A stretch of DNA of 64,000 nucleotides from an uncultured Verrucomicrobiae bacterium (GTDB lineage: Bacteria > Verrucomicrobiota > Verrucomicrobiia > Limisphaerales > Palsa-1400). The translations under genes were made by a program, and so were the position numbers. The stretch is taken from NCBI GenBank assembly GCA_963764165.1, contig CAVXRD010000005.1, forward strand, positions 29,651 to 93,650. Reading direction: 5' to 3'. Position 1 is the first letter of the stretch; each line of letters starts with the position of its first letter. The notes under the pieces were generated by a model. That model worked only from the letters and a program-made list of their open reading frames with translations. It was not told where the DNA came from and ran no database searches. Positions 1,423 to 29,876 of this stretch are shown in pieces.

Positions 1423-3051
1423 TCAATTAAATTTCACCGCTCCGCAGAAATGCACTTCGATCCCCAATTCTGCCAGCATGGCGGCTTTGATCCGGCAGGC
1501 GCGGTGGGCTTTTTTCTCGTCGGGCGCATAGACGACCTGGATGTGGTTGGATTTGTGCCGGGCCATCATTTGGTCGCGCGTGACGCCCTCGAAAACGGTG
1601 TGCATGATCGGCCATTGTGGAGTCGTTTCGGCCCAGCGGCGTTCGGTTTCTTCCTGCGGCAATTCCACCGCTTTTCCGACGCCGAGGTCGCAATGCAATT
1701 TGCCGCCCATGATGAAAATGCGGCTCCAGACAATCGCTCCCGGCTTGCTGATGCCCTTGAGCGTGCCGCCGCCGAGGCGAAAATACATCGCGGGCTGTCG
1801 TTCACTTGACGCTCCTTTCCAGCCGCCGACGAAATGGGCGGGCGGGGCCGCGCCGGAAATCAACAGCACCCAGACGTATTCGTTCAATGTCTCGCTCTGG
1901 TAGGCCTGGCCCCAGCGCAAATCGTGCAGCGTGTTTTCCGGCGGGTAACCGAGCTTGCGCCAAAGCTGGTAAGTCAGCAATCCGTCCAGCCCGGCGCATT
2001 CATCAACTTCGTTGAAATGCGGCAGCGCTTCGCCCGCGTAAAGCTCGTGCTTCGTCACGGCATGTTTGACTGGCGGGCGGTCCACGTTGTTAAGCGTGCC
2101 CTCAACCAGATCGCTGGCCGGGGCGAGGTCCTTCAATCCTTGCTGATATTGAATGCCAATGGCGCTGCACCCAAAGTCATCCGCAATGCGGAGCGCGGCG
2201 ATATACATTTTGCATTGGAGCAGCGTTTGCTCGCGGGTCAATTCAGTCTCCTCATTTTTGCCCCATTTGAATTTGACGCCGTGTTTCAAGTACCATTGCA
2301 AGACGGCATTCGCCTCGGCATCCGAAACGTCGCGCATGGCGGCGTAAAGGGCGGACTGGCTCAGGCGTTCCTTGAATGCGCCGGTGGGATGGAGCAATTC
2401 GTCGGGGATAATTGCGTTGAACATGCCCATGCAACCTTCATCGAACACGCCCAGGATGGCTTTGCGCTGCTTGAATTGCTGGCCGAAGGCGCGGCCCAAT
2501 TTCTCTTCCGCCGCAGGCAAGTTCACGCCGGAAAAATCGCGCACATGACTTGTATCATGCGTGGCCGCTCCTGTTTCGAGCCATTCGCGAAGGCCTTTTT
2601 GGAAAAACTCGGCGGAGAAATCCTCGGCCCACAACGAACTATATTTAACTCCGGCTTTTGTCATCGAGCCGTTCAGATTGAGCATGCCAACAAGGCCAGG
2701 CCAGGTGCCGCTCCAATTCGCCACCGTCAAGATCGGGGCGCCATGAGTGGTCAGCCCCGGCAGAACATGATGGCTGTATTGCCAGACGGCCTCGGCGACG
2801 ATGAGCGGGACCGACGGATCAAGCTTGCGGAACACCTCCATGCCCATTTTCTGTGAGTCAATAAAACCGTGTTTCTTCGCGGGGTCGCAGGCATGCGCGC
2901 GAACAACCTTCCAGCCAAGGCTTTCTATGGATTTGGCAAGGGCGGCTTCCATCTTGAGCTGTTCCGGCCAGCATTTTTGATTGGCGCTGAGGCGGAGGTC
3001 GCCGCTGGCGATGAGATAAATCTTTTTTGGGGACGAGGTTTTCTTCGGCAT
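1423..3051 (-). CDS. L-fucose isomerase-like sugar isomerase
   Basis: 542 aa; [36 protein letters not shown] and HKSNHIQV motifs of the FucI/AraA-like family. Confidence 0.75.
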
Positions 3052-3471
3052 ATGCGTAGCGTTAAGATTCCTTCAGCGAGTCCGCGGAGTCATTGACTTG
3101 GACGCAACATAAGCAGAAGCCGGGGTGCTTGGCCAGAATTTTGAATGAACCCGGCAGCGGGAATCCACCTTTTGCGTTTCTGCTTCGTGTCCATTGCGTC
3201 CTTCTTGTTCAATTCTTTGCCGGCCGCTGGCTGGTCCGGACAAGCGTCTCGCGCGCCGCGCCGATGCCGGATCAAAAAAGACTTTTTCACAACAAGGACA
3301 CAAAGAGGGAAAGGGGAAGACGCCAATTCCCCTTGAATGCGTATGTTCATTGGCGCGCGAGAAACGAGACCTCGTGTGAAGCGCGCTCTTGCACTCTTTG
3401 TCCCCGCGTCCCAATACGGGCGCTGTTTTGGGGTGACAGCGGCGCGAAAAGCCCGTTATTCTGCCGGCGCC

Positions 3472-17979: not shown

Positions 17980-18094
17980 CGCTGTTTTTGCCGGTTTCTC
18001 GGGGCAACGCGAGGGGCAGAAGGCCAAAACAGGAAAAAATGACCGGGTTAAACGTGCCATGCAGACAATTGTTGCCCCACGAATGGGGGAAGGA

Positions 18095-18258
18095 TTTTAA
18101 TCAGGAACGACCGAACTCAGGAACGGAGGCACAAGCAGATCTCACATGCTGGTTCATTCGTGCCCGCAGCCCATATATGTCCCATGCTTCACATTATTCC
18201 CATTACTCGCAATGCGACCCCAGCCTCCGTTCCTGAGTTTGGTCGTTCCTGATTAAAA
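18095..18258. repeat. MITE/REPIN-like element, 36-bp inverted arms (family C, copy 1)
   Basis: TTTTAATCAGGAACGACCGAACTCAGGAACGGAGGC (18095-18130) pairs with 18223-18258 with one mismatch; second copy at 29725-29876. Confidence 0.85.
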
Positions 18259-20139: not shown

Positions 20140-20168
20140 ATCTGGATGTGCATATAATCTCGAAAAAC

Positions 20169-20249
20169 CCGCTACACCCGCTACATCGTTGATTATCAAC
20201 TAGATAAACCGCTACATTTGCCGCTACAGGGCCGCTACAAACCGCTACA
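20169..20249 (+). repeat. Cluster of six CCGCTACA octamers around a GTTGATTATCAAC palindrome
   Basis: Copies start at 20169, 20178, 20209, 20221, 20232 and 20242; palindrome at 20188-20200. Confidence 0.9.
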
Positions 20250-20419
20250 TTCCGGGCGAGGGGATCCAGTTGAGTGAAACAATGTGCTTTCCATGGCATC
20301 CTTTGACACCCGGCAACCACCGTCCAAACCTCGCGAAAAACCAAGGGTGCAATAGGGTGCAATAGCCTGCAACGCCCCGATAACGATTTACTTAGCCGGA
20401 GCCATGGAGTTCATTTCAC

Positions 20420-20567: not shown

Positions 20568-20730
20568 AATCCAACTGCATCGTTCCGACTAAGCCCCGAG
20601 TCAGAGACTCCTGTTTTTTTTGAATTTTCAAAGAACACGCCCTGAGGGCGACAGGGGGAAAAATAAGCCCAAAAATCTTTTTTGTCAATTATGCTTGCAG
20701 TTACACGGTTATGTGGTATTTAGTGGGCGT

Positions 20731-21840
20731 ATGACAACCGTATCATCGATTGTTCAGCCGGGGCCAGAGGCGAAAACAGCGCCGGGGGCGGCGGGCCAGG
20801 AGTGCTGCGGGCCGACCGGCCGCGCCCGCACCAGCAAGATCGCGCGCCTGCCCGCCGATATCCGCGCTGAATTGAACGAGCGGCTTCTGGAGGCGGAGCC
20901 GCCTGCCGCCATTCTGGAATGGCTCAACGGCTTGTCGGAGGTGCAGCGCGTGCTGGCGCAATCTTTTGACTCCCAGCCCATCACGGAAGTCAACCTCTCG
21001 CGCTGGCGCCAGGGCGGTTACGCCGGGTGGCTGGAGCAGCGGAACACGCAGGAGGCGGTGGAAGCCGTGGCCACGGCCGCCGCCGGGGTGAAAGGTCCGG
21101 CGGCGGAAAATCTCAACCGGCATCTGGCGGTCGTATTGAGCGCGCGGCTGTTCGTGGAGATGCAGCGCTGCGGGGCCATGCCCGAAGGGCCGGACAAAAC
21201 GGCGTCGCTGCACAAATTGGTGATGTCCTACGCCCTGCTGCGCCGGGCCGAGTATTATGGCGAGAAGGTGCGGCTCGACCGGGAAAAGCTGAAAATGCTG
21301 GAGGAGCGCCTGCGGCAAGAGGCGGAAAAAAACCGCAAGCGCTCGCCCGAGGAACAGGAGGACCGCATCAACAAAATCCTGGGCACAGGCCGCTTCGCCG
21401 CCAACTGGAACAACGACCTAAGACGATGGGAAGGTCCGGGAGCGGCGATGCGGTATGAGGAGGAGGAAGTCACCCTCCAGGTGCGGACGGAAATGAAGCG
21501 GCGCTATCCGAATGGCTTCCCGGAAGGCTACCGCCCTCCCTACGGCGACCCGCTGCCGGTTTACCCCAAGCTCGTTGACACACCAAAGAGTGTCAATCAT
21601 TCAGCGCAGACGCCTAGTGTTCCAGCGCGCAGCGATAGCGACAGCCCGCCCAACAATTCCGTTGGGAACGAGGAACGTGCATCCGCCCCAAGGCAGCGGA
21701 CAGAACAGGAGCCAGCACGAGTGGATGTTGGGCGGCAACCGACAAATGAACACCTTGTCACGATGACGCCTGCGCATGGGGTCGGGCAAACGCATCCAAA
21801 CCGAATCCCGGAGGGATGTCAGATTGCAGCCGGTGGTTGA
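20731..21840 (+). CDS. Hypothetical protein with DUF3486/Mu Gp27-like N-terminal HTH region
   Basis: SKIARLPADIRAELNERL...ILEWLN...NLSRWRQGGY; coiled coil; low-complexity tail ending inside a REP arm. Confidence 0.6.
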   Translation: MTTVSSIVQPGPEAKTAPGAAGQECCGPTGRARTSKIARLPADIRAELNERLLEAEPPAAILEWLNGLSEVQRVLAQSFDSQPITEVNLSRWRQGGYAGWLEQRNTQEAVEAVATAAAGVKGPAAENLNRHLAVVLSARLFVEMQRCGAMPEGPDKTASLHKLVMSYALLRRAEYYGEKVRLDREKLKMLEERLRQEAEKNRKRSPEEQEDRINKILGTGRFAANWNNDLRRWEGPGAAMRYEEEEVTLQVRTEMKRRYPNGFPEGYRPPYGDPLPVYPKLVDTPKSVNHSAQTPSVPARSDSDSPPNNSVGNEERASAPRQRTEQEPARVDVGRQPTNEHLVTMTPAHGVGQTHPNRIPEGCQIAAGG

Positions 21841-22041
21841 GCGGCAGCGACACCACCGGAAACAAATGCCAAAAATCCCCTCGGACCCTGGAAGGCGTCC
21901 CAGCTCCGTCCAAATACCGGCGCCGCATTTGACATCCGATGCTGGCACCCACTTCCGGGGTGCATTCCGATTTCTAAATTGTTATCCGGTGGTGTCGCTG
22001 ACGCTCAACCACCGGCTACAATCTCGGATGCCTCCGGCATC
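21805..22041. repeat. Intact REPIN-like doublet (family A)
   Basis: Arm 21805-21860 (AGCCGGTGGTTGAGCGGCAGCGACACCACCGGA) is inverted at 21985-22041; inner short hairpins. Confidence 0.88.
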
Positions 22042-22114
22042 ACGGACGGAAACCGCCGAGGCTTAGATGCGTTTGCCCTTTGCCCTTTGCGTTGAAATTC
22101 TTACCGCCTGCAAA

Positions 22115-22215
22115 GCGGCTTTTACGGTCCCGGCGCGAGCGGCGGGAATGGCAGCGGATGAAGACTGATTCCCATTTCCGGATACGAAAGTATCAAAAGT
22201 GAGGACTGAAGCCGG
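22115..22215 (+). repeat. 101-bp direct repeat L, copy 1
   Basis: Aligns without gaps to 23477-23577, 7 mismatches by hand count. Confidence 0.93.
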
Positions 22216-22277
22216 TGCGGCCGAGCTTCCAAGAAAAGCGACTCGCCTTTGCTGGTTGCGTGAGACATATTGGTGAT

Positions 22278-22508
22278 ATGGAAGCGACTCTTTTAGAGGC
22301 TCAGAAGCTGCGCCCCGAAATCATCCAGCGCATTGAAGCGATGGATGACGAGAGCTTGCTGTTACTTCACCGCCTTTTGTTGCATTTGGAAAAGGAGCGG
22401 CTGTGGCGCGAGTTGTCAGCGGAAGCCGAGGCAGACCGCCGTTCGGGAAAATTTGACCGATTGTCCGACCTCGTCCGCGAGGCGCGCGCCGAATTGCGCA
22501 AGGGATGA
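22278..22508 (+). CDS. Putative antitoxin, 76 aa
   Basis: Small helical charged ORF with ATGA overlap to a PIN-type remnant. Confidence 0.65.
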   Translation: MEATLLEAQKLRPEIIQRIEAMDDESLLLLHRLLLHLEKERLWRELSAEAEADRRSGKFDRLSDLVREARAELRKG

Positions 22509-22657
22509 TTGTCTGCCTTGACACCAACACAGTGGTGCAAGCGCTGGCTGAGGGGCATCCTTATCATCCGATTGTGGTTTACAAGCCGCAGCCCATCACG
22601 CCTGGCGAATTCATCTCAAAATTCGTCACAGGCGCTTCGCCCGGTTCGGCCAAATAA
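22505..22657 (+). pseudogene. PIN-domain toxin remnant with large in-frame internal deletion
   Basis: Hand translation MIVCLDTNTVVQALAEGHPYHPIVVYKPQPITPGEFISKF...*: PIN start (LDTN) joined directly to a PIN end (ITPxEF); only 50 aa. Confidence 0.75.
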
Positions 22658-22762
22658 TGGGCTTCGATGCCTGCGGCTTTGGGGGCGAAAACTTCCGAAA
22701 TTCCGATGCGTCTGCCCTGTGCGGGCAATGGGACTTCCCGGGTGGAGTGAATGCGCGCTCGT

Positions 22763-23448
22763 CAATCCCAAGGGGATTGAATCATTCAGCCCAGGGTTGG
22801 CCGATTCAGAGAGGGCTACCCTGGGAAGGCGTTCGCAGCCACAACCCTGAAAGGAGTTGCATCAATCCCACACATACCGTTCGTCAAACGCGATTTGGTA
22901 ACGCCGCAGCAATGCTCTGAATTCATCCTGAAACGAAGTCTTCCGATGATGCTCCTCCTGGCCAGCAGTGCAGGCCCGCACCGACTCGATTTGTGAAAAG
23001 CCGATGGAAAAAATGCCATAGCCATTCTGCCATGCAAAATCCTGCAAATCGGTGCATTTGGCTTTTAGCCACAGGGATGAGCCTCGCTTGGACTCCTTGA
23101 CCATGGCCGCCGCTTCACAAGTGCGCGCCAGCACACAGAGGATATGAATATGATCCTCCACTCCGCCGACGATGATGAGCTGGCAATCAAGCTGGGCCAG
23201 AATCCCGCCAACGTATCGATGCAACTCCTGGCGCAACGTGGAGTCGCGCAGGAAGGGGCGGCGATCCTTGGTGGAAAACACCGTGTGAACCAAAATCTTG
23301 GCCAGCGATTGCGGCATGGCGTCAGGATGCGCAAAGGCCGGTTTTGATTCAACCCATTCTGGGTTGGGATTTTATTGCGGTTAACCCAGGGTAGCCCTCT
23401 TGGAATCGGGCAACCCCGGGCTACATGATTTCAATCCCGTTGGGATTG
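22763..23448. mobile_element. IS200-like/REP-associated tyrosine transposase unit bounded by ~100-bp inverted REP arms (family B)
   Basis: 22763-22864 (CAATCCCAAGGGGATTG...GAGGGCTACCCTGGG) is an inverted homologue of 23345-23448. Confidence 0.85.
22862..23317 (-). CDS. tnpA: IS200/IS605-family Y1 HUH transposase, catalytic Tyr replaced by Cys
   Basis: HTVFSTKDR, EDHIH (HUH), FAWQNGYG; VRACTAGQEEHH where the family has YIxxQ. Confidence 0.9.
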   Translation of the reverse strand: MPQSLAKILVHTVFSTKDRRPFLRDSTLRQELHRYVGGILAQLDCQLIIVGGVEDHIHILCVLARTCEAAAMVKESKRGSSLWLKAKCTDLQDFAWQNGYGIFSIGFSQIESVRACTAGQEEHHRKTSFQDEFRALLRRYQIAFDERYVWD

Positions 23449-23476
23449 CTGGGCGGGCTGCAAGCAGTAACACGAC

Positions 23477-23577
23477 GCGGTTTTTACGGCCCCGGCGCGA
23501 GCGGCGGGAATGGCAGCGGATGAAGACTGATTCCCATTTCCGGATACAAACGTGTCAAAAGCGAGGACTGACGCCGG
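23477..23577 (+). repeat. 101-bp direct repeat L, copy 2
   Basis: See 22115-22215. Confidence 0.93.
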
Positions 23578-23604
23578 CACCCCAAGTTTTTGAGCTAACG
23601 CAAT

Positions 23605-24771
23605 TTAAGCTAGCTTAGTAAGTTTTTCAAATTCTAACGCAATCTCAGCTGGGTTAGGCACATTGGCAAGAGTAATCATCACGTTAGCTTCATATTTTTC
23701 GCCCCTTCGTTCGGCTTCTAGGACTTTGGAGATTTCGGCATCGACAGTGCCAGGAATGCCTTCAATTTTCTGAATCGAATCCTTGGAAAACTCAGAAATC
23801 AGATGCAGCAAGCGTTCGCATTCAGGTCTAGTATCCGCACAATTAAACTCAATCGTCCATTCAAGGAGAGCTTTCCGAATTCGAGCGAGGCGTTGGGCAA
23901 CATAGAGAAGATGTTCCGGATCGCCGGCTTCGCCAGGCTTGCCTAGTGCTTCCTTCAAGGCGATATTCATCAATTTCCCCCAAGAATCGACCAAAGCTGC
24001 GATTTGACCATATTTCGCGATAATCCATTGAGACAATACATATAAATCTTCGAGCTTTTGGACGGAGGCCAATTTAAGACCATACTGTAAATCCCATTTG
24101 AATTGTCGATCACGAGCCATCTCGTCCAACAATACCGAGCTAAAGAAAAAGAATTCCCACCCTTTTGGACGCTCCATGAGCAGCTTTAAAGACTTTCCAG
24201 AAAGTGAGAGCAATGGTTCGGAAAGTTTAAGCGCTTGAACCTTCTCGAGAAGCACTAATCCCTCCATAAATAAGTATCCGAGTTGACTGCGAAGCGTTCC
24301 AGTGATGTGAATAACCTCTTCAAACTCAAAAACCCAATGATTCTTGGAGCTTCGTAAAGTTTCAATAAATTCAAATACCTTTGTTGTATCCACTCTACTA
24401 GAGTAATCAGAATTCGGATTCGCCTTCCAAATAGGCAGAATGTTTAGGATTTCTTTTAAGACGAAAACAAATATAGGTATTCCCTTTGCCCTGGCCTCAA
24501 GATACTCTAGGTTCGTGATGGATTTACCTGTTTCGTTTGTTGAGCCATACCGAGCACCTACTATTAGCACGAAAATATCAGCCTTCTCTCTCACCGCACG
24601 CAAACAATTCTCAACCGGACTGATATGTGGGGTAACAGGAAACGCTGGTGTTTCAGAAAGAATGGGATCGAAACCCATGTCGATCAAAAATCTCCGCATA
24701 TCAGCACGGACTTGATTGAGATCAAAACAAGTCGAGCTGACGAAAGCTGTTGGTGCATATCCTTTCGGCAT
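23605..24771 (-). CDS. DUF4062 (TIR-like/nucleoside deoxyribosyltransferase-like fold) protein with helical C-terminal domain
   Basis: FVSSTCFDL, DIFVLIVGARYGS, SITNLEYLEA, GIPIFVF; AT-rich. Confidence 0.88.
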   Translation of the reverse strand: MPKGYAPTAFVSSTCFDLNQVRADMRRFLIDMGFDPILSETPAFPVTPHISPVENCLRAVREKADIFVLIVGARYGSTNETGKSITNLEYLEARAKGIPIFVFVLKEILNILPIWKANPNSDYSSRVDTTKVFEFIETLRSSKNHWVFEFEEVIHITGTLRSQLGYLFMEGLVLLEKVQALKLSEPLLSLSGKSLKLLMERPKGWEFFFFSSVLLDEMARDRQFKWDLQYGLKLASVQKLEDLYVLSQWIIAKYGQIAALVDSWGKLMNIALKEALGKPGEAGDPEHLLYVAQRLARIRKALLEWTIEFNCADTRPECERLLHLISEFSKDSIQKIEGIPGTVDAEISKVLEAERRGEKYEANVMITLANVPNPAEIALEFEKLTKLA

Positions 24772-24863
24772 AGTGTTGGGTAACAGATCGCCCTTGCTCT
24801 GTCGATTCGAGATTTTATCTCGCAGGCATTAGTCCGCCGCACCACTCGCGTGCAGGAGTGCAC

Positions 24864-24917
24864 GTGTCACTCATTAGGGCGTTATGTCAACAGATAAAAC
24901 GCCCTAATGGGTGACAC
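24864..24917. repeat. 54-bp hairpin between the SIR2 and DUF4062 genes
   Basis: GTGTCACTCATTAGGGCGTT...AACGCCCTAATGGGTGACAC, 20-bp stem with one mismatch. Confidence 0.85.
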
Positions 24918-24924
24918 TGGCGCC

Positions 24925-26124
24925 TTATGGGGCAACCTCATTCATCTCTTTCTTGATGAATTCGCTAAAATCGCTGACAACCTTAATATCGTCAGCCTTT
25001 TTGTACATATTTGGCGCAACCTCCTTGAGCATCTCATTTAGGTAATACGCTGGACTGCTCGGAGTCTGCCTCCAGTTCGCACTTAGAGGATTTGCCATAA
25101 CAACTTCGACCTGGGAACCCTTCCCATCGAACAGATATTCCAAACCACCTTTCAAAAATGGATGAACAGATAGACCGACAAACGATATTTTCCTTGCCGC
25201 TTCAATTTCTCGTTTCGCTCTTTCCCATATGCCCTTAAATAAGGTGTATGTCGTTCGGTTTTGCATGAAAAATTTATCTAATCCGATAAATTGTTTTTTC
25301 TCAAGTATCTCCCACGGGAATATAATTGGAGGTACGAATTTCGCCCCGTCGGCTTCAAATAGTGCCTTCGCTCTATCATGCTCGTTTGCTTCAAATAACG
25401 TCCCATACTTCGCCTCGGAACCCCTTGCACCATGCTCGCATATAGTGCCGTGAAGTTGAAGAACACAAAAGCTCTGATTAGGTGAATCATTACTAAGCCA
25501 TTCACGATCCAATGGTGAATAAAATCCACTTGTGACTGCATTTAATTGAATTTCATGTTGCTTATGAGCTGCCATAGCATCCGAGTCCACTATCGCCGCA
25601 GGGCCGCCATGTTCACAAACGTATCGTCGAATGGTTAAGGCACGATGTAGCAAATACTCAAGATAAGGATCATAGTTGTATGTAAGAATTGTTATATCCT
25701 CTCGAAGTTTCGCAAGATCTTCCTTAAATAGAGCCTGCATGAATGGATAATAGTCCGATTTCTCGAAATTGTCCTCGGGGTTGAATATGCCCAATGCCGC
25801 TCTTACAAAAGTTCTAAGTCCGTTGATTTTATGCTGATAACTAGGCGTCTTGTCTGCGAGTTTGCAAAATTCATCCAATGTCGCAAAACCACCGGTCCTA
25901 AACAGCTTTAGTGCCTCTTCGTGTATGTTCCAAAACGGTATTCCTTTATTCAAAATCGAGCCCTGGGGTAACTTACGGTCTTCTTCGTATTTTAGCAGAG
26001 CTTCCTCCCAATGTTTCTTCGATGACATTAGAAGCCTCAATCCGTTCGCGAGTGGATACCCCGAGCTCACAGAGGCTCCAGCGCCAAGGAAAATAACGTG
26101 TTTGCCGTACTTGCCGTTTGCCAT
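24925..26124 (-). CDS. SIR2-like (SIR2_2) domain protein, candidate NADase defence effector
   Basis: FLGAGAS..GYP, TYNYD, QLHG, IIFP, FVGLS motifs; AT-rich. Confidence 0.85.
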   Translation of the reverse strand: MANGKYGKHVIFLGAGASVSSGYPLANGLRLLMSSKKHWEEALLKYEEDRKLPQGSILNKGIPFWNIHEEALKLFRTGGFATLDEFCKLADKTPSYQHKINGLRTFVRAALGIFNPEDNFEKSDYYPFMQALFKEDLAKLREDITILTYNYDPYLEYLLHRALTIRRYVCEHGGPAAIVDSDAMAAHKQHEIQLNAVTSGFYSPLDREWLSNDSPNQSFCVLQLHGTICEHGARGSEAKYGTLFEANEHDRAKALFEADGAKFVPPIIFPWEILEKKQFIGLDKFFMQNRTTYTLFKGIWERAKREIEAARKISFVGLSVHPFLKGGLEYLFDGKGSQVEVVMANPLSANWRQTPSSPAYYLNEMLKEVAPNMYKKADDIKVVSDFSEFIKKEMNEVAP

Positions 26125-26275
26125 AAACAACGAGTCAACAAGTTACTCCCGAGAATGTCCAGCGAGAATTTGAGAATGGGCATACTCCCCGGAGGAGCGA
26201 GTAAAGATTTTTACGCCCTCTGCCTCACGTACCAACATTCAGAGAACGGGAGTTATGATGCAATGCAGCGTCACC

Positions 26276-26353
26276 CCTCACTTTTTGCACAAATGAGACC
26301 GGCTGGAATTTCGGCGGCTCCAAGAGGAGTTCCCGCCTTCGCCAAGGCTACGG
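26276..26353 (+). repeat. ~78-bp direct repeat R, copy 1
   Basis: CCTCACTTTTTGC..AAATGAGACCGGCTGGAATTT..GGCGGCTCCAAGAGGAGTTCCCGCCTTCGC..A..GCTACGG, repeated at 27029-27107. Confidence 0.93.
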
Positions 26354-26452
26354 CGCGACAAGTCCGCGGTCGCGCTTTTCGCGTTTTGGGCGGGCTAAAG
26401 TCGAAAGTATTGTCTGTCCGCCAGTGCTGAGATGTGGTAGGCATGAACAGAT

Positions 26453-26677
26453 ATGGATTACCGAAAGATTATCACCATTGAGGCTGGCAAGCGCGGCGGG
26501 CGTCCGTGCATTCGGAGGATGCGGATTGCCGTGGCCGACGTGCTGGGCTGGCTGGCCGCGGGGATGACGCACGCTGAAATCATTGGCGACTTTCCTGAAT
26601 TGACGGAGGAAGACATTCGGGCATGCCTCGAATACGCCGCTGAACGTGAACGCCGCCTTGTCACTGTGGCCGAATGA
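26453..26677 (+). CDS. DUF433-family antitoxin
   Basis: GKRGGRPCIRRMRIAVADVLGWLAAGMTHAEIIGDFPELTEEDIRACLEYAA. Confidence 0.93.
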   Translation: MDYRKIITIEAGKRGGRPCIRRMRIAVADVLGWLAAGMTHAEIIGDFPELTEEDIRACLEYAAERERRLVTVAE

Positions 26678-27005
26678 AGCTGCTCTTCGACCAGAACTTG
26701 AGTTCAAATTGGCGAAGAAGCTGGGGGATATATTCCCAGAGTCGGAACAAGTGAGATTGGTCGGAATGCATGAAGCCGGGGACGACGAAATTTGGGAATA
26801 CGCGCGGGTGCATGGGTTCACAGTGGTTTCGAAGGATTCAGACTTCGACGAACGCAGCGCATTGCTCGGGCATCCGCCCAAGGTCGTATGGTTGCGGTGC
26901 GGCAACCAAACGACGGCGCGCATAGAACAGTTGATTCGCTTGCGCCTGAACGAGATTCGCAGCTTTGAGTTGAACGAAACGGCAGGCTGCATTGAAATTT
27001 ACTAG
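26674..27005 (+). pseudogene. DUF5615/PIN-like toxin, frameshifted after codon ~10
   Basis: ATG 26674 gives MKLLFDQNLS then stops early; the rest (FKLAKKL..DDEIWEYA..SKDSDF..PPKVVWLRCGN) is in another frame; AGTTCAAA is one base short. Confidence 0.85.
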
Positions 27006-27028
27006 CCAAAGTGGCGTGCCATGCAGGT

Positions 27029-27107
27029 CCTCACTTTTTGCGCTAAATGAGACCGGCTGGAATTTTGGCGGCTCCAAGAGGAGTTCCCGCCTTCGCTAAA
27101 GCTACGG
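27029..27107 (+). repeat. ~78-bp direct repeat R, copy 2
   Basis: See 26276-26353. Confidence 0.93.
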
Positions 27108-27240
27108 ACGACGGGACGGATGACAGGAGGCTTCTGCCTTCGCGCTTTGGCGGGTGGGCGAGCAACAGGTCAAATTATGGGGCTGACGCTTGCGCATGGG
27201 AGATATTCGGCTCTTCGACCACGAGGCGCGATTTCCTGAC

Positions 27241-27269
27241 TTGCTTGGTTGCGCGCTGCCGATTATGTT
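27241..27269 (+). promoter_or_regulatory. Putative sigma70 promoter of a leaderless transcript
   Basis: TTGCTT-N17-TATGTT, 6 nt before ATG 27276; no Shine-Dalgarno sequence. Confidence 0.5.
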
Positions 27270-27275
27270 TCTGTC

Positions 27276-27497
27276 ATGGTTATCATACGATTTGCCGATC
27301 AAGAGTCCAAAAGGAAGGCTCTCGGTTACATCGCCAGGCGCTTCTCCGGCAAGAGTTGGTCTACGGGCGAAGTGATGGTGCCCGAAGCGGCTTTGCCCGT
27401 GCTCGCCGCAGAATGCTTCCAGTTCACTGTCGAAGGTCCGGCCACTTATGAGCGCCTCACGTCGTTACGAGATACTCCTGCCGCTGCGGTTCAATGA
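27276..27497 (+). CDS. Small hypothetical protein, first gene of a TA-like pair
   Basis: 73 aa MVIIRFADQESKRKALGY...; overlaps the next ORF. Confidence 0.6.
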   Translation: MVIIRFADQESKRKALGYIARRFSGKSWSTGEVMVPEAALPVLAAECFQFTVEGPATYERLTSLRDTPAAAVQ

Positions 27498-27651
27498 CGG
27501 GCAATCGGTGCCAGACGCGCTCATCTCCGACACGCTCATTGAATTGGAAAACCACTTTGGCGCGGTTTCGTGGGAAACTCAGGTCATTCGCGGGCGGTGG
27601 CGGCATGAGGAAGATGTCTTTTCTGACGATTTGATGCGGATCTGTGTGTGA
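27448..27651 (+). pseudogene. Small hypothetical protein, probably 3'-truncated
   Basis: RRYEILLPLRFNDGQSVPD...ETQVIRGRW...DDLMRICV*; ends abruptly at a TGTGTGTGA junction; similar proteins as I recall them are ~100 aa. Confidence 0.5.
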
Positions 27652-27835
27652 AAGGGTCCTAGAAAAGTGACAATTCAATTGTGGCTTTGGCGGCGGTAGC
27701 CGTTTTGGTAAATTTGACCGGAATGAAATATGGAATTTTCTAGGACTGCCCTTTCACTTTTCTTTCAACACAACATACGACCAACCAGCCCTATAAAAAC
27801 TTGAGGTTTCCGCAGAGCCGCGCACAATCCTTCCC

Positions 27836-29656
27836 GTGAACCGACTTCACATTTTCCGGGGAATCGCGGTGGTGGCTTTGGCATTTTGCGCCATGGGCGC
27901 AATGGGCGATTCAACTGAACCCCAACACCCCGGCTCCGACGAACTGATTAACTTCAGCCTGCTGGATTATAAGGGCAGATATTACGAATTGCGGCGGGTG
28001 GATGCCCGGGCGGTCGTTTTGTTTTTCACCGGCAATGGCTGCCCGGTCGCGCGGCAGAGCATCGAGAAACTCAAGTCGTTGCGAGAGCGCTATGCGGAGA
28101 AAGGCGTGGCCGTTTGGATGATCAACTCCGTGGCCGGGGATGATCGCGATAGCATCGAAAAGGAAGCCCAGGAATTTAAAGAGAATCCGCTTCCGGTGTT
28201 GATTGACGAAACCCAGGAAATCGCCCGCTTGCTGGAAGTGAAGCGGACTGCGGAAACGATCTGCATCAGCACGGCCAATTGGAAGGTCTTCTATCGCGGC
28301 GCGCTTGACGATCAATTGGCCGAGGGCGCTCAGAAGCCCGAGCCGGCCGAAAAATACGTCGAAACGGCGCTGGATCAGTTTTTGGCGTCGGAGAGCATCA
28401 CGCGGCCCAGCACGGTGGGGCGCGGATGCCTGATCACCTACACGGCGCCCGAGGGACACGGGGCGGGGCCGGTTTGGTACACCAAGGAAATCGCCCCCTT
28501 GCTTCAAAGCAAATGCGTGGTGTGCCATTCCCCCGGCAATATCGGCCCCTTCGCCATGTCGAGCTATCAAAAAGTAAAAGGGCGCGCGGATATGATCCGA
28601 GAGGTGCTGGTTGACCGGAGGATGCCGCCGTGGGATGCCGACCCGCGTTTTGGCCACTTCTCAAATGACCGCTCGATGACCGTAGCGCAAACGAAGACGT
28701 TGCTGCGCTGGATTGATGAAGGCGCTCCACAGGATGCGGGGCCTGATCCTTTGGCGCAATCTGTGCCGGAGTCGCCGCGCTGGCCGATGGGCCAGCCTGA
28801 TTACATCATCAAGCTGCCGGTTCCCCAGCAAATCCCGGCGACCGGCGTTTTCGAATACCGCTACGTCGATGTTCCTTCGCCAGTGACCAATGACGTCTGG
28901 CTGGCGGGGGCTGTTTTTCGGCCGGACAACCACCGGGTGGTTCATCATTTGATTGTCCGCGCCAAATATGAAAAGACGCCGAAACAGGCCAAAGATGATG
29001 TTTTTCTGACCGGCTGGGCGCCGGGCATTGATTACTGGGCGTATCCCGAAGGAACGGGGAAATTTCTGGGCAAGGGAGCGACGCTGAATTTTGAACTGCA
29101 CTACACCGCCGATGGCAAGCCCGAGACGGACCAAAGCGAGCTGGGCCTTTATGTGATGAAGTCGCCGCCCAAACTAGCCCTGCAAACGACCGCCGCCGTG
29201 AACTGGGACCTGGTGGTGCCGCCGCATGAGGCGGAAGCGCCCAGCTACGCCATCTGCGGATTTGACCACGAAACGGTGCTTTATGATTTGGCGCCGCACA
29301 TGCACCTGCGGGGCGCGTGGTTCAAATTCGAGGCTCTTTACCCAACTGGCAAGCGGGAAACGCTGCTCTCGGTGCCGCGCTATGATTTCAACTGGCAAAC
29401 CATTTACCGCCTGGCCGAACCCAAAGTGATGCCGGCCGGCTCGTGGATTTTTTGCACCGGCGGCTTTGATAATTCCACGCGGAACCCAGCCAATCCCAAT
29501 CCCGACAAACGAATCAAGTGGGGGGACCAATCGTTTGACGAAATGTTTATAGGATTTATGGATGTGGCGAAATTGCCTTCCGCGAAAAGCTCGGCCAAAC
29601 AGGATCGGGCGGAAGTGGAAGCGGGAACAGAGACGGGCCGCGCTCTCAGCCAGTAG
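27836..29656 (+). CDS. Exported redoxin + c-type cytochrome + copper monooxygenase-like fusion protein
   Basis: Signal peptide, redoxin (FTGNGCP, YRGALDD), CVVCH heme motif, VVHH, HY, PHMHLRG, DEMFIG. Confidence 0.8.
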   Translation: MNRLHIFRGIAVVALAFCAMGAMGDSTEPQHPGSDELINFSLLDYKGRYYELRRVDARAVVLFFTGNGCPVARQSIEKLKSLRERYAEKGVAVWMINSVAGDDRDSIEKEAQEFKENPLPVLIDETQEIARLLEVKRTAETICISTANWKVFYRGALDDQLAEGAQKPEPAEKYVETALDQFLASESITRPSTVGRGCLITYTAPEGHGAGPVWYTKEIAPLLQSKCVVCHSPGNIGPFAMSSYQKVKGRADMIREVLVDRRMPPWDADPRFGHFSNDRSMTVAQTKTLLRWIDEGAPQDAGPDPLAQSVPESPRWPMGQPDYIIKLPVPQQIPATGVFEYRYVDVPSPVTNDVWLAGAVFRPDNHRVVHHLIVRAKYEKTPKQAKDDVFLTGWAPGIDYWAYPEGTGKFLGKGATLNFELHYTADGKPETDQSELGLYVMKSPPKLALQTTAAVNWDLVVPPHEAEAPSYAICGFDHETVLYDLAPHMHLRGAWFKFEALYPTGKRETLLSVPRYDFNWQTIYRLAEPKVMPAGSWIFCTGGFDNSTRNPANPNPDKRIKWGDQSFDEMFIGFMDVAKLPSAKSSAKQDRAEVEAGTETGRALSQ

Positions 29657-29724: not shown

Positions 29725-29876
29725 ATTGAATCAGGCACGAGCGAACTCAGGAACGGAGGCCGGTTTCGCGGGCCATGCGATGGGCAGAATGCGACTGAAT
29801 GGGACATATGTTATTGAGATGCGCGCGAGACCTGCTTCAGCCTCTTTTCCTGTGTTCGGTCGTTCCTGATTAAAAT
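29725..29876. repeat. MITE/REPIN-like element (family C, copy 2, inverted relative to copy 1)
   Basis: AATCAGGCACGAGCGAACTCAGGAACGGAGGC...GTTCGGTCGTTCCTGATTAAAA; interior matches the reverse complement of copy 1 (AAGCAG.TCTC, ATATGTCCCAT). Confidence 0.82.

Follow-up and report, generated by a model that had tools for sequence, protein, structure and literature searches.

Tip-to-tip TIRtron ends around variable accessory genes in an uncultured Verrucomicrobiae bacterium

We analyzed a stretch of 64,000 nucleotides, here called the window (positions 29,651 to 93,650 of contig CAVXRD010000005.1, assembly GCA_963764165.1), from an uncultured Verrucomicrobiae bacterium whose genome (G000) is assembled into 7.0 Mb on 5 contigs (written C1, C2 etc.). 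The window carries an island of accessory genes in which two repeats, L and R, each occur twice and face one another across changing cargo. The inner ends of these repeats are orphan ends of TIRtrons, standing tip-to-tip around the cargo, and we lean towards the view that the cognate transposase TIRYT likely acts on them in trans, cutting and rejoining single-stranded DNA (ssDNA) at the tips to add or swap genes. Here we document the identity and polarity of the ends, the pairing of L with R, the turnover of cargo at the tips and the stacking of tips. New at this locus are near-identical arms with swapped cargo at seven loci, the polarity bias of the tips and a with/without pair within one genome. 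Ends and enzyme belong to an already named family, so that the initial annotation went too far in proposing an undescribed system; only the use of the ends as cassette borders, with cargo between the tips, was not found in the literature searched, in which subscription journals were sparsely represented.

L1 and L2 are 93% identical across 101 nt and R1 and R2 (26276-26353 and 27029-27107) 93.7% identical across 79 nt, and both pairs lie where the initial annotation had placed them. Likewise reproduced were its alignment of the core of L2 with the reverse complement of R1, identical at 18 of 23 positions, and its observation that all four cores are oriented toward a central AT-rich gene pair, the central segment having a GC content of 0.44 versus 0.57 for the genome. 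The core is the only part that L and R have in common; their bodies outside it show no relatedness (shuffle p=0.40), which rules out one long inverted repeat composed of L and R. A structured RNA was considered and rejected as well, there being no Rfam match at gathering score for L or R and a single weak match outside them. L2, R1 and R2 fold no better than shuffles, and folding stands out for L1 (z -2.35) and for a hairpin inside the island termed T3 (z -5.8) only.

The core of L and R and its cognate enzyme

Profile scans of the genome detected 91 tips of three families, namely T1 (the core of L and R), T2 and T3, with 43, 39 and 9 hits versus 3, 0 and 1 in reversed-genome controls. At C4:237.8-242.5k, the T1 core bounds three tandem copies of a gene for a 316-aa Y1 enzyme and overlaps the stop codon; between the three copies lie different, AT-richer genes (GC 0.48-0.49). 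Homologues of this enzyme were found in 25 of 30 genomes of the family, and in relatives the genes end in terminal inverted repeats (TIRs) of the T1, T2 or T4 type. Judged by sequence, the core shared by L and R represents the TIR of TIRtrons, elements that were named, together with their HUH-Y1 enzyme TIRYT, by Di Nocera, De Gregorio and Rocco in 2013 (PMC3733652). This motif delimits TIRYT genes both in G000 and in relatives, and L and R are accordingly element ends that point outward at the cargo: L corresponds to the right-hand terminus of an element situated to its left, R to the left-hand terminus of one situated to its right, with the cargo outside both. Conservation among the copies of L and R falls off at the outer end of the core, i.e. 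at the tip. The window island does not itself qualify as a TIRtron, as the window holds no TIRYT gene and the tips face the cargo.

The cited part of PMC3733652 describes gene-less TIR copies that occur singly, in dimers and in clusters, as well as a tip consensus, GGGG[AT][CG]A[CG] (GGGGWSAS), found in the majority of TIRs though not in all. The T1 tip reads GGTGTCAG/GGCGTCAG, not GGGGWSAS; the consensus is matched exactly by none of the 43 T1 sites (9 with one mismatch), by 3 of the 39 T2 sites (19 near matches) and by 2 of the 9 T3 sites. TIRYT has the motifs NH[FY]H and Y[IV]HLNP, and its full-length relatives retain H-x-H in 17/17 cases, Y[IV]H[LY]NP in 14/17 and an invariant Tyr in 18/18. 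Table 1 of Quentin et al. 2018 (PMC6006769) gives the same motifs for subclass 2.1 of TnpA-Y1, to which, going by that table, the enzyme probably belongs. Its predicted model best matches 4ER8, a transposase of the tyrosine type associated with repetitive extragenic palindromes (REPs); the C-terminal domain is confidently helical in the model (residues 238-314), with no named fold match and no Pfam hit beyond Y1_Tnp; for the subclass, a C-terminal HTH resembling Bac_DnaA_C, HTH_23 or HTH_28 would be expected in this place.

T3 is present in 21 of the 30 family genomes (0-1 hits per genome in controls), has the tip bases of T1 and stacks with T1 tips. It was not seen to bound a TIRYT gene in 15 loci checked, and its status as a TIR therefore rests on likeness, namely tip bases and stacking. 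The site at 27647-27680 is assigned to type T4, the TIR found around TIRYT genes at two loci of relatives (L202 and L243).

Tips, junctions and paired arms across the genome

Adjacent tips of opposite orientation at most 6 kb apart form 18 tip-to-tip pairs (0.76-4.2 kb) versus 7 pairs in element orientation, the latter all being minis of 53-191 bp or 1-kb TIRtrons. Because complete elements force tip-to-tip arrangements upon their neighbours, pairs of two orphan tips were counted separately, with an outcome of 10:0 in favour of the tip-to-tip orientation (p=0.002). Five relatives, chosen for good assemblies, contain 18 tip-to-tip pairs and 14 element-oriented ones, which correspond to 9 TIRYT genes and 5 minis of 87-307 bp. 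Base composition changes across the tips: for the 43 T1 sites, the GC content is 0.517 beyond the tip versus 0.570 behind it (p=1e-5), and at 17 of them it falls below 0.50 beyond the tip, compared with 4% of random windows. The 39 T2 sites served as a replicate (0.514 versus 0.552; 31/39 sites; p=0.0014); for the 9 T3 sites, the difference across the tip was not significant.

A second platform in this genome offers a with/without pair: C4:164-168k equals C2:138-140k (94-97% identity) plus a 0.72-kb gene that starts at a T2 tip and is closed by a T3-like remnant (identified by eye), after which comes a 560-bp duplicated copy of the element end. Tip stutters, in which the tip is repeated briefly in tandem, accompany 8 of the 43 T1 sites versus a background of 2.9%. 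In the relative G004 (L208:3301-5472), two identical tips exactly flank a 2.2-kb stretch of an RHS locus that breaks off inside genes on either side, and a piece of an RHS polymorphic-toxin locus joined mid-gene to a TIR tip was also noted in G016 (L206:2507). Another locus, L240, has a +,+,+,-,- stack of tips as in the window. At L010 (C1:316154-316229), tips of three TIR families lie within 75 bp and face a matching T1/T2 stack 2.5 kb away. TIR tips are also targets of insertion sequences (ISs): the same IS, IS110-like by our own reading, starts exactly at T2 tips in G018 (L244:4994, 7001; L245:4304, 5325), and another one is found at a T1-variant tip in G004 (L238:3191). The idea that the TIR pairs, as a guide sequence, with the bases following the tip was dropped upon inspection by eye, these bases being constant across TIR variants.

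L occurs in 13 copies at 9 loci and R in 9 copies at 7 loci, spread over four contigs, which excludes mere local duplications as the origin of the repeats. At every R locus (7/7), an L is found 0.6-4.2 kb upstream in the same orientation; the probability of this overlap would be 3.6e-7 if each repeat had landed independently among the 50 loci that carry the promoter-like block C (Table 1). As the initial annotation had anticipated, the pairs enclose different DNA elsewhere in the genome: a secreted protein with Ig domains, a BspA-type leucine-rich repeat (LRR) protein, AAA_21 + DUF4276, SDR + TetR with an IS, InlB-repeat proteins and small hypotheticals. The notion that the cargo is mainly defence and toxin-antitoxin (TA) genes is not supported by this inventory. 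Apart from IS, TA and repeat modules, no donor copies of the cargo were found within the genome. While the cargo is unrelated between loci, the left arm (block B, block C, a Mu gp27-like open reading frame (ORF) and L) and the right arm (R plus a REP-like hairpin) are about 75-96% identical, and the first 540 nt from block C, comprising this block and the 5' part of the gp27-like ORF, share 92-96% identity at six L/R loci. Stacked tips are oriented +...+ on the left side and -...- on the right side, an arrangement that fits the suggestion of the initial annotation that such arrays grow by end duplication. The sequences to the left of L2 and to the right of R1 accompany L and R at other loci too.

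In 60 genomes of relatives, one core-only L match and two R-like matches were obtained; the long forms of L and R were thus not found outside the lineage among the genomes searched. The left flanking gene of the island was not found in 5 relatives. In G003, the right flanking gene comes after a XerC-like gene and a small TA-like pair, without the island, which shows lineage specificity and no junction.

Several observations concern the platform on which the left arm is built. Blocks A, B and C recur at about 50 other loci, mostly in that order and with interchangeable REP-like spacers, and block C runs into the terminase-small-subunit-like (gp27-like) ORF or its N-terminal relic. The minus-strand promoter of block C is followed by what we take to be a boxA-like motif. 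Members of the gp27-like ORF family are present in 23 of the 30 family genomes, with up to 15 matches each. A metagenome scan with the gp27-like protein returned 2 loci at 48-50% identity, which carry neither L/R nor T1 tips. Beyond the gp27-like gene at the metagenome locus L179:2500-4600, a long hairpin repeat recurs several times and separates small TA-like and other genes; we read this as a similar platform idea realized with a different repeat. Two L/R loci (L004:2457-3722 and L005; C2:1332.4k and C2:2572k) carry an insertion of the same 421-aa IS-like ORF, within the gp27-like gene or immediately behind it. R-like TIR tips in G027 and G029 (L028:1080-1560, 2930-3057; L029:760-1540) are immediately followed by repeated 5' gene fragments, presumably comM-like as far as their translation can be recognized, and the same fragments are found beside a gp27-like element at C1:1575.6k of the genome studied here.

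The window island and its cargo

The island extends from ~20140 to ~27680 and is wider than the interval 22115-27107 delimited by the initial annotation (Table 1). Its tips follow the order +, +, (-,+), -, -, - and define five cargo segments. The T3 and T4 tips subdivide and close the island, and the DUF4062 and SIR2-fold genes are consequently each bounded tip-to-tip. Block C may contain a second, rightward promoter, as read by eye. Two related inverted-repeat elements with arms of 36-69 nt (18094-18258 and 29726-29876), 11.6 kb apart, bracket a wider region.

Table 1. Features of the window island (positions in the window; plus-strand tips point right, minus-strand tips left).
Feature	Position	Strand	Remarks
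Block A	20143..20260	+	Direct repeat of a 9-nt motif, 5-6 units; dispersed (122 profile hits across the genome)
Block B	20328..20395	+	Direct repeat of an 11-nt motif, 2-3 units, 80 hits; most L/R islands have it as their left border
Block C	20620..20735	.	Promoter-like, minus-strand TTGACA-17-TATTTT; 50 copies, downstream of A and/or B
Mu gp27 / terminase-small-subunit-like ORF, 369 aa	20731..21840	+	phrog_426, E 1.3e-7
REP-like long hairpin, 63-nt arms	21805..22040	.	Between gp27-like ORF and L1
L1, orphan element end, TIR type T1	22115..22215	+	Tip 22212, points right
Cassette 1a: 76-aa hypothetical and truncated 51-codon ORF	22278..22657	+	
Cassette 1b: Y1 transposase gene (22862-23317) within its own inverted REP-like hairpins	22767..23443	-	
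L2, second L copy, T1	23477..23577	+	Tip 23574, points right
Cassette 2: DUF4062 protein, 388 aa	23605..24771	-	GC 0.44
T3 hairpin, 54 nt, 25-bp arms	24864..24917	.	Two back-to-back tips; ends cassette 2, starts cassette 3
Cassette 3: SIR2-fold protein, about 400 aa	24925..26130	-	GC 0.44
R1, orphan element end, T1, then REP-like hairpin	26268..26353	-	Tip 26268, points left
Cassette 4: DUF433 + DUF5615 toxin-antitoxin pair	26453..27005	+	
R2, second R copy, T1	27021..27107	-	Tip 27021 with 6-nt deletion, points left
Cassette 5: two small overlapping hypothetical ORFs, 73 and 67 aa	27276..27651	+	
T4 tip, outermost, slightly shortened	27647..27680	-	Points left; right border of island

The DUF4062 protein (E 8e-21), the DUF433 + DUF5615 pair and Y1_Tnp were identified by Pfam. 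The 401-aa SIR2-fold ORF has no Pfam hit and only weak PADLOC SIR2 hits; in a Foldseek search with its predicted model (pLDDT 92), the top match was E. coli SIR2 of the SIR2-HerA system (E 2.7e-5, TM about 0.42). The protein is a candidate stand-alone defence effector. It belongs to a family of at least 131 proteins without a Pfam or NCBIfam hit, and homologues of the gene are sporadic, occurring in 6 of the 300 other genomes searched from the order; one of them is located directly after the apparent end of a type I restriction gene. In cassette 1a, the 76-aa hypothetical appears antitoxin-like, and the 51-codon ORF is presumably a truncated PIN toxin, to go by its motif. Copies of the DUF433 + DUF5615 pair, about 89% identical, are found at C3:759k, there too behind an R, and at C1:339k. 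The tnpA of cassette 1b, of which remnants exist at two other L loci, retains HUH but has Cys at the YIxxQ position where five intact paralogues have Tyr. As a different, REP-flanked Y1 gene lacking the catalytic Tyr, it is therefore to be regarded as cargo and not as the motor, contrary to the proposal that the Y1 enzyme of the window mobilizes the units; the cognate enzyme of the ends is the 316-aa TIRYT.

Probable gene exchange at the tips, rival explanations and known systems

E. coli TnpA-REP cleaves and recombines ssDNA, and sequestering of flanking genes was suggested by its authors in the cited part of PMC3333891. The steps that we envisage at the tips are drawn by analogy from the HUH chemistry of TnpA-REP, insofar as it is laid out in the cited parts of PMC3333891 and PMC8266576. 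Two facing TIRs would base-pair to form a stem whose loop is the cargo; TIRYT would bind the paired TIRs and nick at the tips by means of its Tyr, and subsequent strand transfer would rejoin the ends. The loop might thereby be excised or exchanged, or a tip might be joined to foreign DNA. A circle consisting of one end and a gene could re-enter at a tip or by homologous recombination, giving rise to L-cargo-L and R-cargo-R arrangements, such that genes would be added at a tip or swapped between left arm and right arm. The nested look of the island then likely results from accretion at both tips and does not require that entire L...R units insert into one another. Modules are likely also reshuffled through homologous recombination between arms, since the junctions beside L2 and R1 are common to other loci.

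In a bolder version, tentative at present, TIRYT would be an integron-like HUH capture recombinase for which tip-to-tip TIRs are the attachment sites, with foreign ssDNA of almost any sequence being written between them; in this family, the sites would be mounted on a multicopy platform of promoter and terminase-small-subunit-like gene, building islands of defence, TA and surface-protein genes. The chromosome would here take the role of the transposon junction, and the inserts would be whole genes or mid-gene RHS pieces.

A number of findings weigh against gene exchange by TIRYT at the tips. As to the enzyme, the sole full-length TIRYT frame in the assembly has NYFH in place of NHFH, the other copies are broken, and no biochemical assay of TIRYT was found in the literature searched, in which two works name the enzyme. 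The orphan-orphan count becomes 11:1 when pairs up to 12 kb are included, and the ten pairs are not independent events, since four of them are L/R relatives and two share one cargo. The GC asymmetry is absent at 63 exact T1 sites in other genomes (0.590 versus 0.593 over 500 bp on each side; p=0.75), and tip stutters are weak there (10/133 versus 3.1%). ISs in relatives are likewise positioned exactly at tips, which may thus be hot spots in general. The L at C4:79k is truncated before its tip, 2 of the 9 L loci are devoid of R and end in other repeats, and left-arm and right-arm divergence correlate weakly (rho 0.40, p=0.07). Of the 6 SIR2-fold homologues, 1 has TIR-like flanks, and these are weak. 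Finally, the empty junctions that the initial annotation suggested looking for were seen in 0 of 401 genomes of the order, scanned tip-to-tip with one exact T1 pattern and with only 13 genomes coming from this family; such palindromes may be unstable or unassembled.

Part of this would be expected if the islands were passive wreckage shaped by host recombination, an explanation that we regard as rather unlikely but serious. TIRtrons and minis would pile up and decay in plastic islands, one-sided deletions would leave tips beside any DNA, an ancestral arm-cargo-arm island would have been copied, and RecA-type exchange via the arms would replace the cargo; TIRYT would have made the ends and captured nothing. 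The lack of a GC bias at external sites, of an empty junction and of an intact TIRYT in the assembly is in line with such a scenario, as are the clustering of tips at blocks A, B and C (49/91 within 4 kb versus 15% at random) and the mosaic make-up of the islands from REP modules, IS copies and broken Y1 genes. By itself, however, wreckage does not account for breakpoints at the tip in two TIR families, nor for orphan tips never bracketing cargo in element orientation within 6 kb (10:0 here and 0/14 in the five relatives). The tip stutters and the extra gene exactly at a tip are left over, and each new cargo would need two tip junctions. Assembly error or chance we consider to have a negligible probability: ours is a single assembly with several frameshifts, but the copies differ by about 7% and recur on four contigs with different cargo, the same tip logic is seen in five other genomes, and the reversed-genome controls yielded next to no hits.

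The initial annotation had proposed that L...R is a composite unit, similar to those bounded by miniature inverted-repeat transposable elements (MITEs), with L and R as its own ends, which captures genes, inserts into other such units and is moved by the REP-associated Y1 enzyme of the window. Co-occurrence of L and R and variability of the cargo stood up to scrutiny, and the +,+,-,- geometry does look nested; the mobile nesting unit did not, as the cores are oriented like element ends that look outward from the element they belong to. TIR tips are found at the inner rather than the outer ends, a common outer boundary or target duplication was not discernible by eye, and homology continues about 2 kb past L. 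The contexts to the left of L2 and to the right of R1 recur elsewhere and travel with L and R, with no interrupted target, and the window tnpA lacks the catalytic Tyr and has its own hairpins. We consider this model very unlikely and largely refuted. About equally unlikely is that the arms are satellite-like packaging signals, with the terminase-small-subunit-like protein binding the A/B repeats, a resident Mu-like particle packaging the cargo, and recombination into sister loci proceeding via the arms. The ORF does match phrog_426, a terminase small subunit, is multicopy in 23 of the 30 family genomes and is preceded by iteron-like repeats and a promoter-like block; the terminase match is weak, though (Pfam below cut-off), most of the 50 C-block loci hold an N-terminal relic only, cargo is also found tip-to-tip without the ORF, and tip junctions are not explained. 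Packaging could nevertheless be an additional transfer route.

The proposed gene exchange between tip-to-tip TIRs has partial counterparts among known systems. Among the closest are TIRtrons themselves: the L/R core is the TIR that bounds the 316-aa Y1 genes, and gene-less TIR copies are seen here singly, in dimers and in clusters, as on record for TIRtrons (PMC3733652). Here, however, each TIR is an orphan half joined to a long arm of non-transposase sequence, and the TIRs face one another across unrelated genes; the cited parts of PMC3733652 and PMC6006769 describe neither cargo between TIRs nor biochemistry. REPtrons with their enzyme TnpA-REP (RAYT) and bacterial interspersed mosaic elements (BIMEs) likewise involve a HUH-Y1 enzyme acting in trans on dispersed repeats, and ssDNA cleavage, strand transfer, tandem amplification and a suggested sequestering of genes are reported for TnpA-REP in the cited parts of PMC3333891 and PMC8266576. 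REPs are hairpins with a GTAG tag, whereas the ends described here are A-rich inverted repeats without a stable hairpin of their own, and the cargo of 0.6-4 kb includes whole genes.

Integrons and clusters of attC sites lacking an integrase (CALINs) combine a fixed platform with variable AT-rich cassettes, each bounded by a site, a single point of accretion, and TA and defence cargo. The island resembles them in its fixed platform with a promoter-like block, its variable, site-bounded AT-rich cassettes, its TA and defence cargo and, on the reading favoured here, accretion at one point. IntI and attC are missing here, as the initial annotation had recognized: genome-wide, no integron integrase exceeded the cut-off (TIGR02249, best 83.5 bits versus 265), and a simple core scan gave 0 attC-like candidates in 22100-27700. 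None of the 22 PF00589 matches in the genome, which would indicate a tyrosine recombinase, is at an L/R locus. The sites are instead inverted TIR tips of several families, and cassettes occur in either orientation. In one-ended capture by ISCR/IS91 elements, as in complex class 1 integrons, a HUH Y2 enzyme acts on oriIS and terIS, and the captured gene is flanked by a direct duplication of the element end. A HUH enzyme and a duplicated end around a gene (L-cargo-L and the C4 allele) are common to both, but the enzyme here is a Y1, the TIRs are symmetric, and capture would take place on both sides. Mobile insertion cassettes (MICs), integron mobilization units (IMUs) and MITE-bounded composite transposons are non-autonomous ends that enclose passenger genes in transposon orientation, with a transposase provided in trans. 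Non-autonomous ends bound passenger genes here too, yet with reversed polarity, all element-oriented pairs within 6 kb being minis or TIRYT genes; the target duplication of composite MITEs was not seen in flanks inspected by eye, and the outer borders vary.

TIRYT-type proteins make up the second largest subclass of Y1 HUH enzymes according to the cited part of PMC6006769. The genome offers substrates (paired arms, the with/without pair and a 54-nt mini element) and the relatives offer intact enzymes, which makes the question directly testable. A HUH enzyme joining a short end to nearly arbitrary ssDNA could serve as a tool. If the ends indeed act as cassette borders, TIR tips could be used to mine for defence and toxin genes in the way that attC sites are, and bacteria would possess a second means of assembling variable gene arrays, one that needs no integrase.

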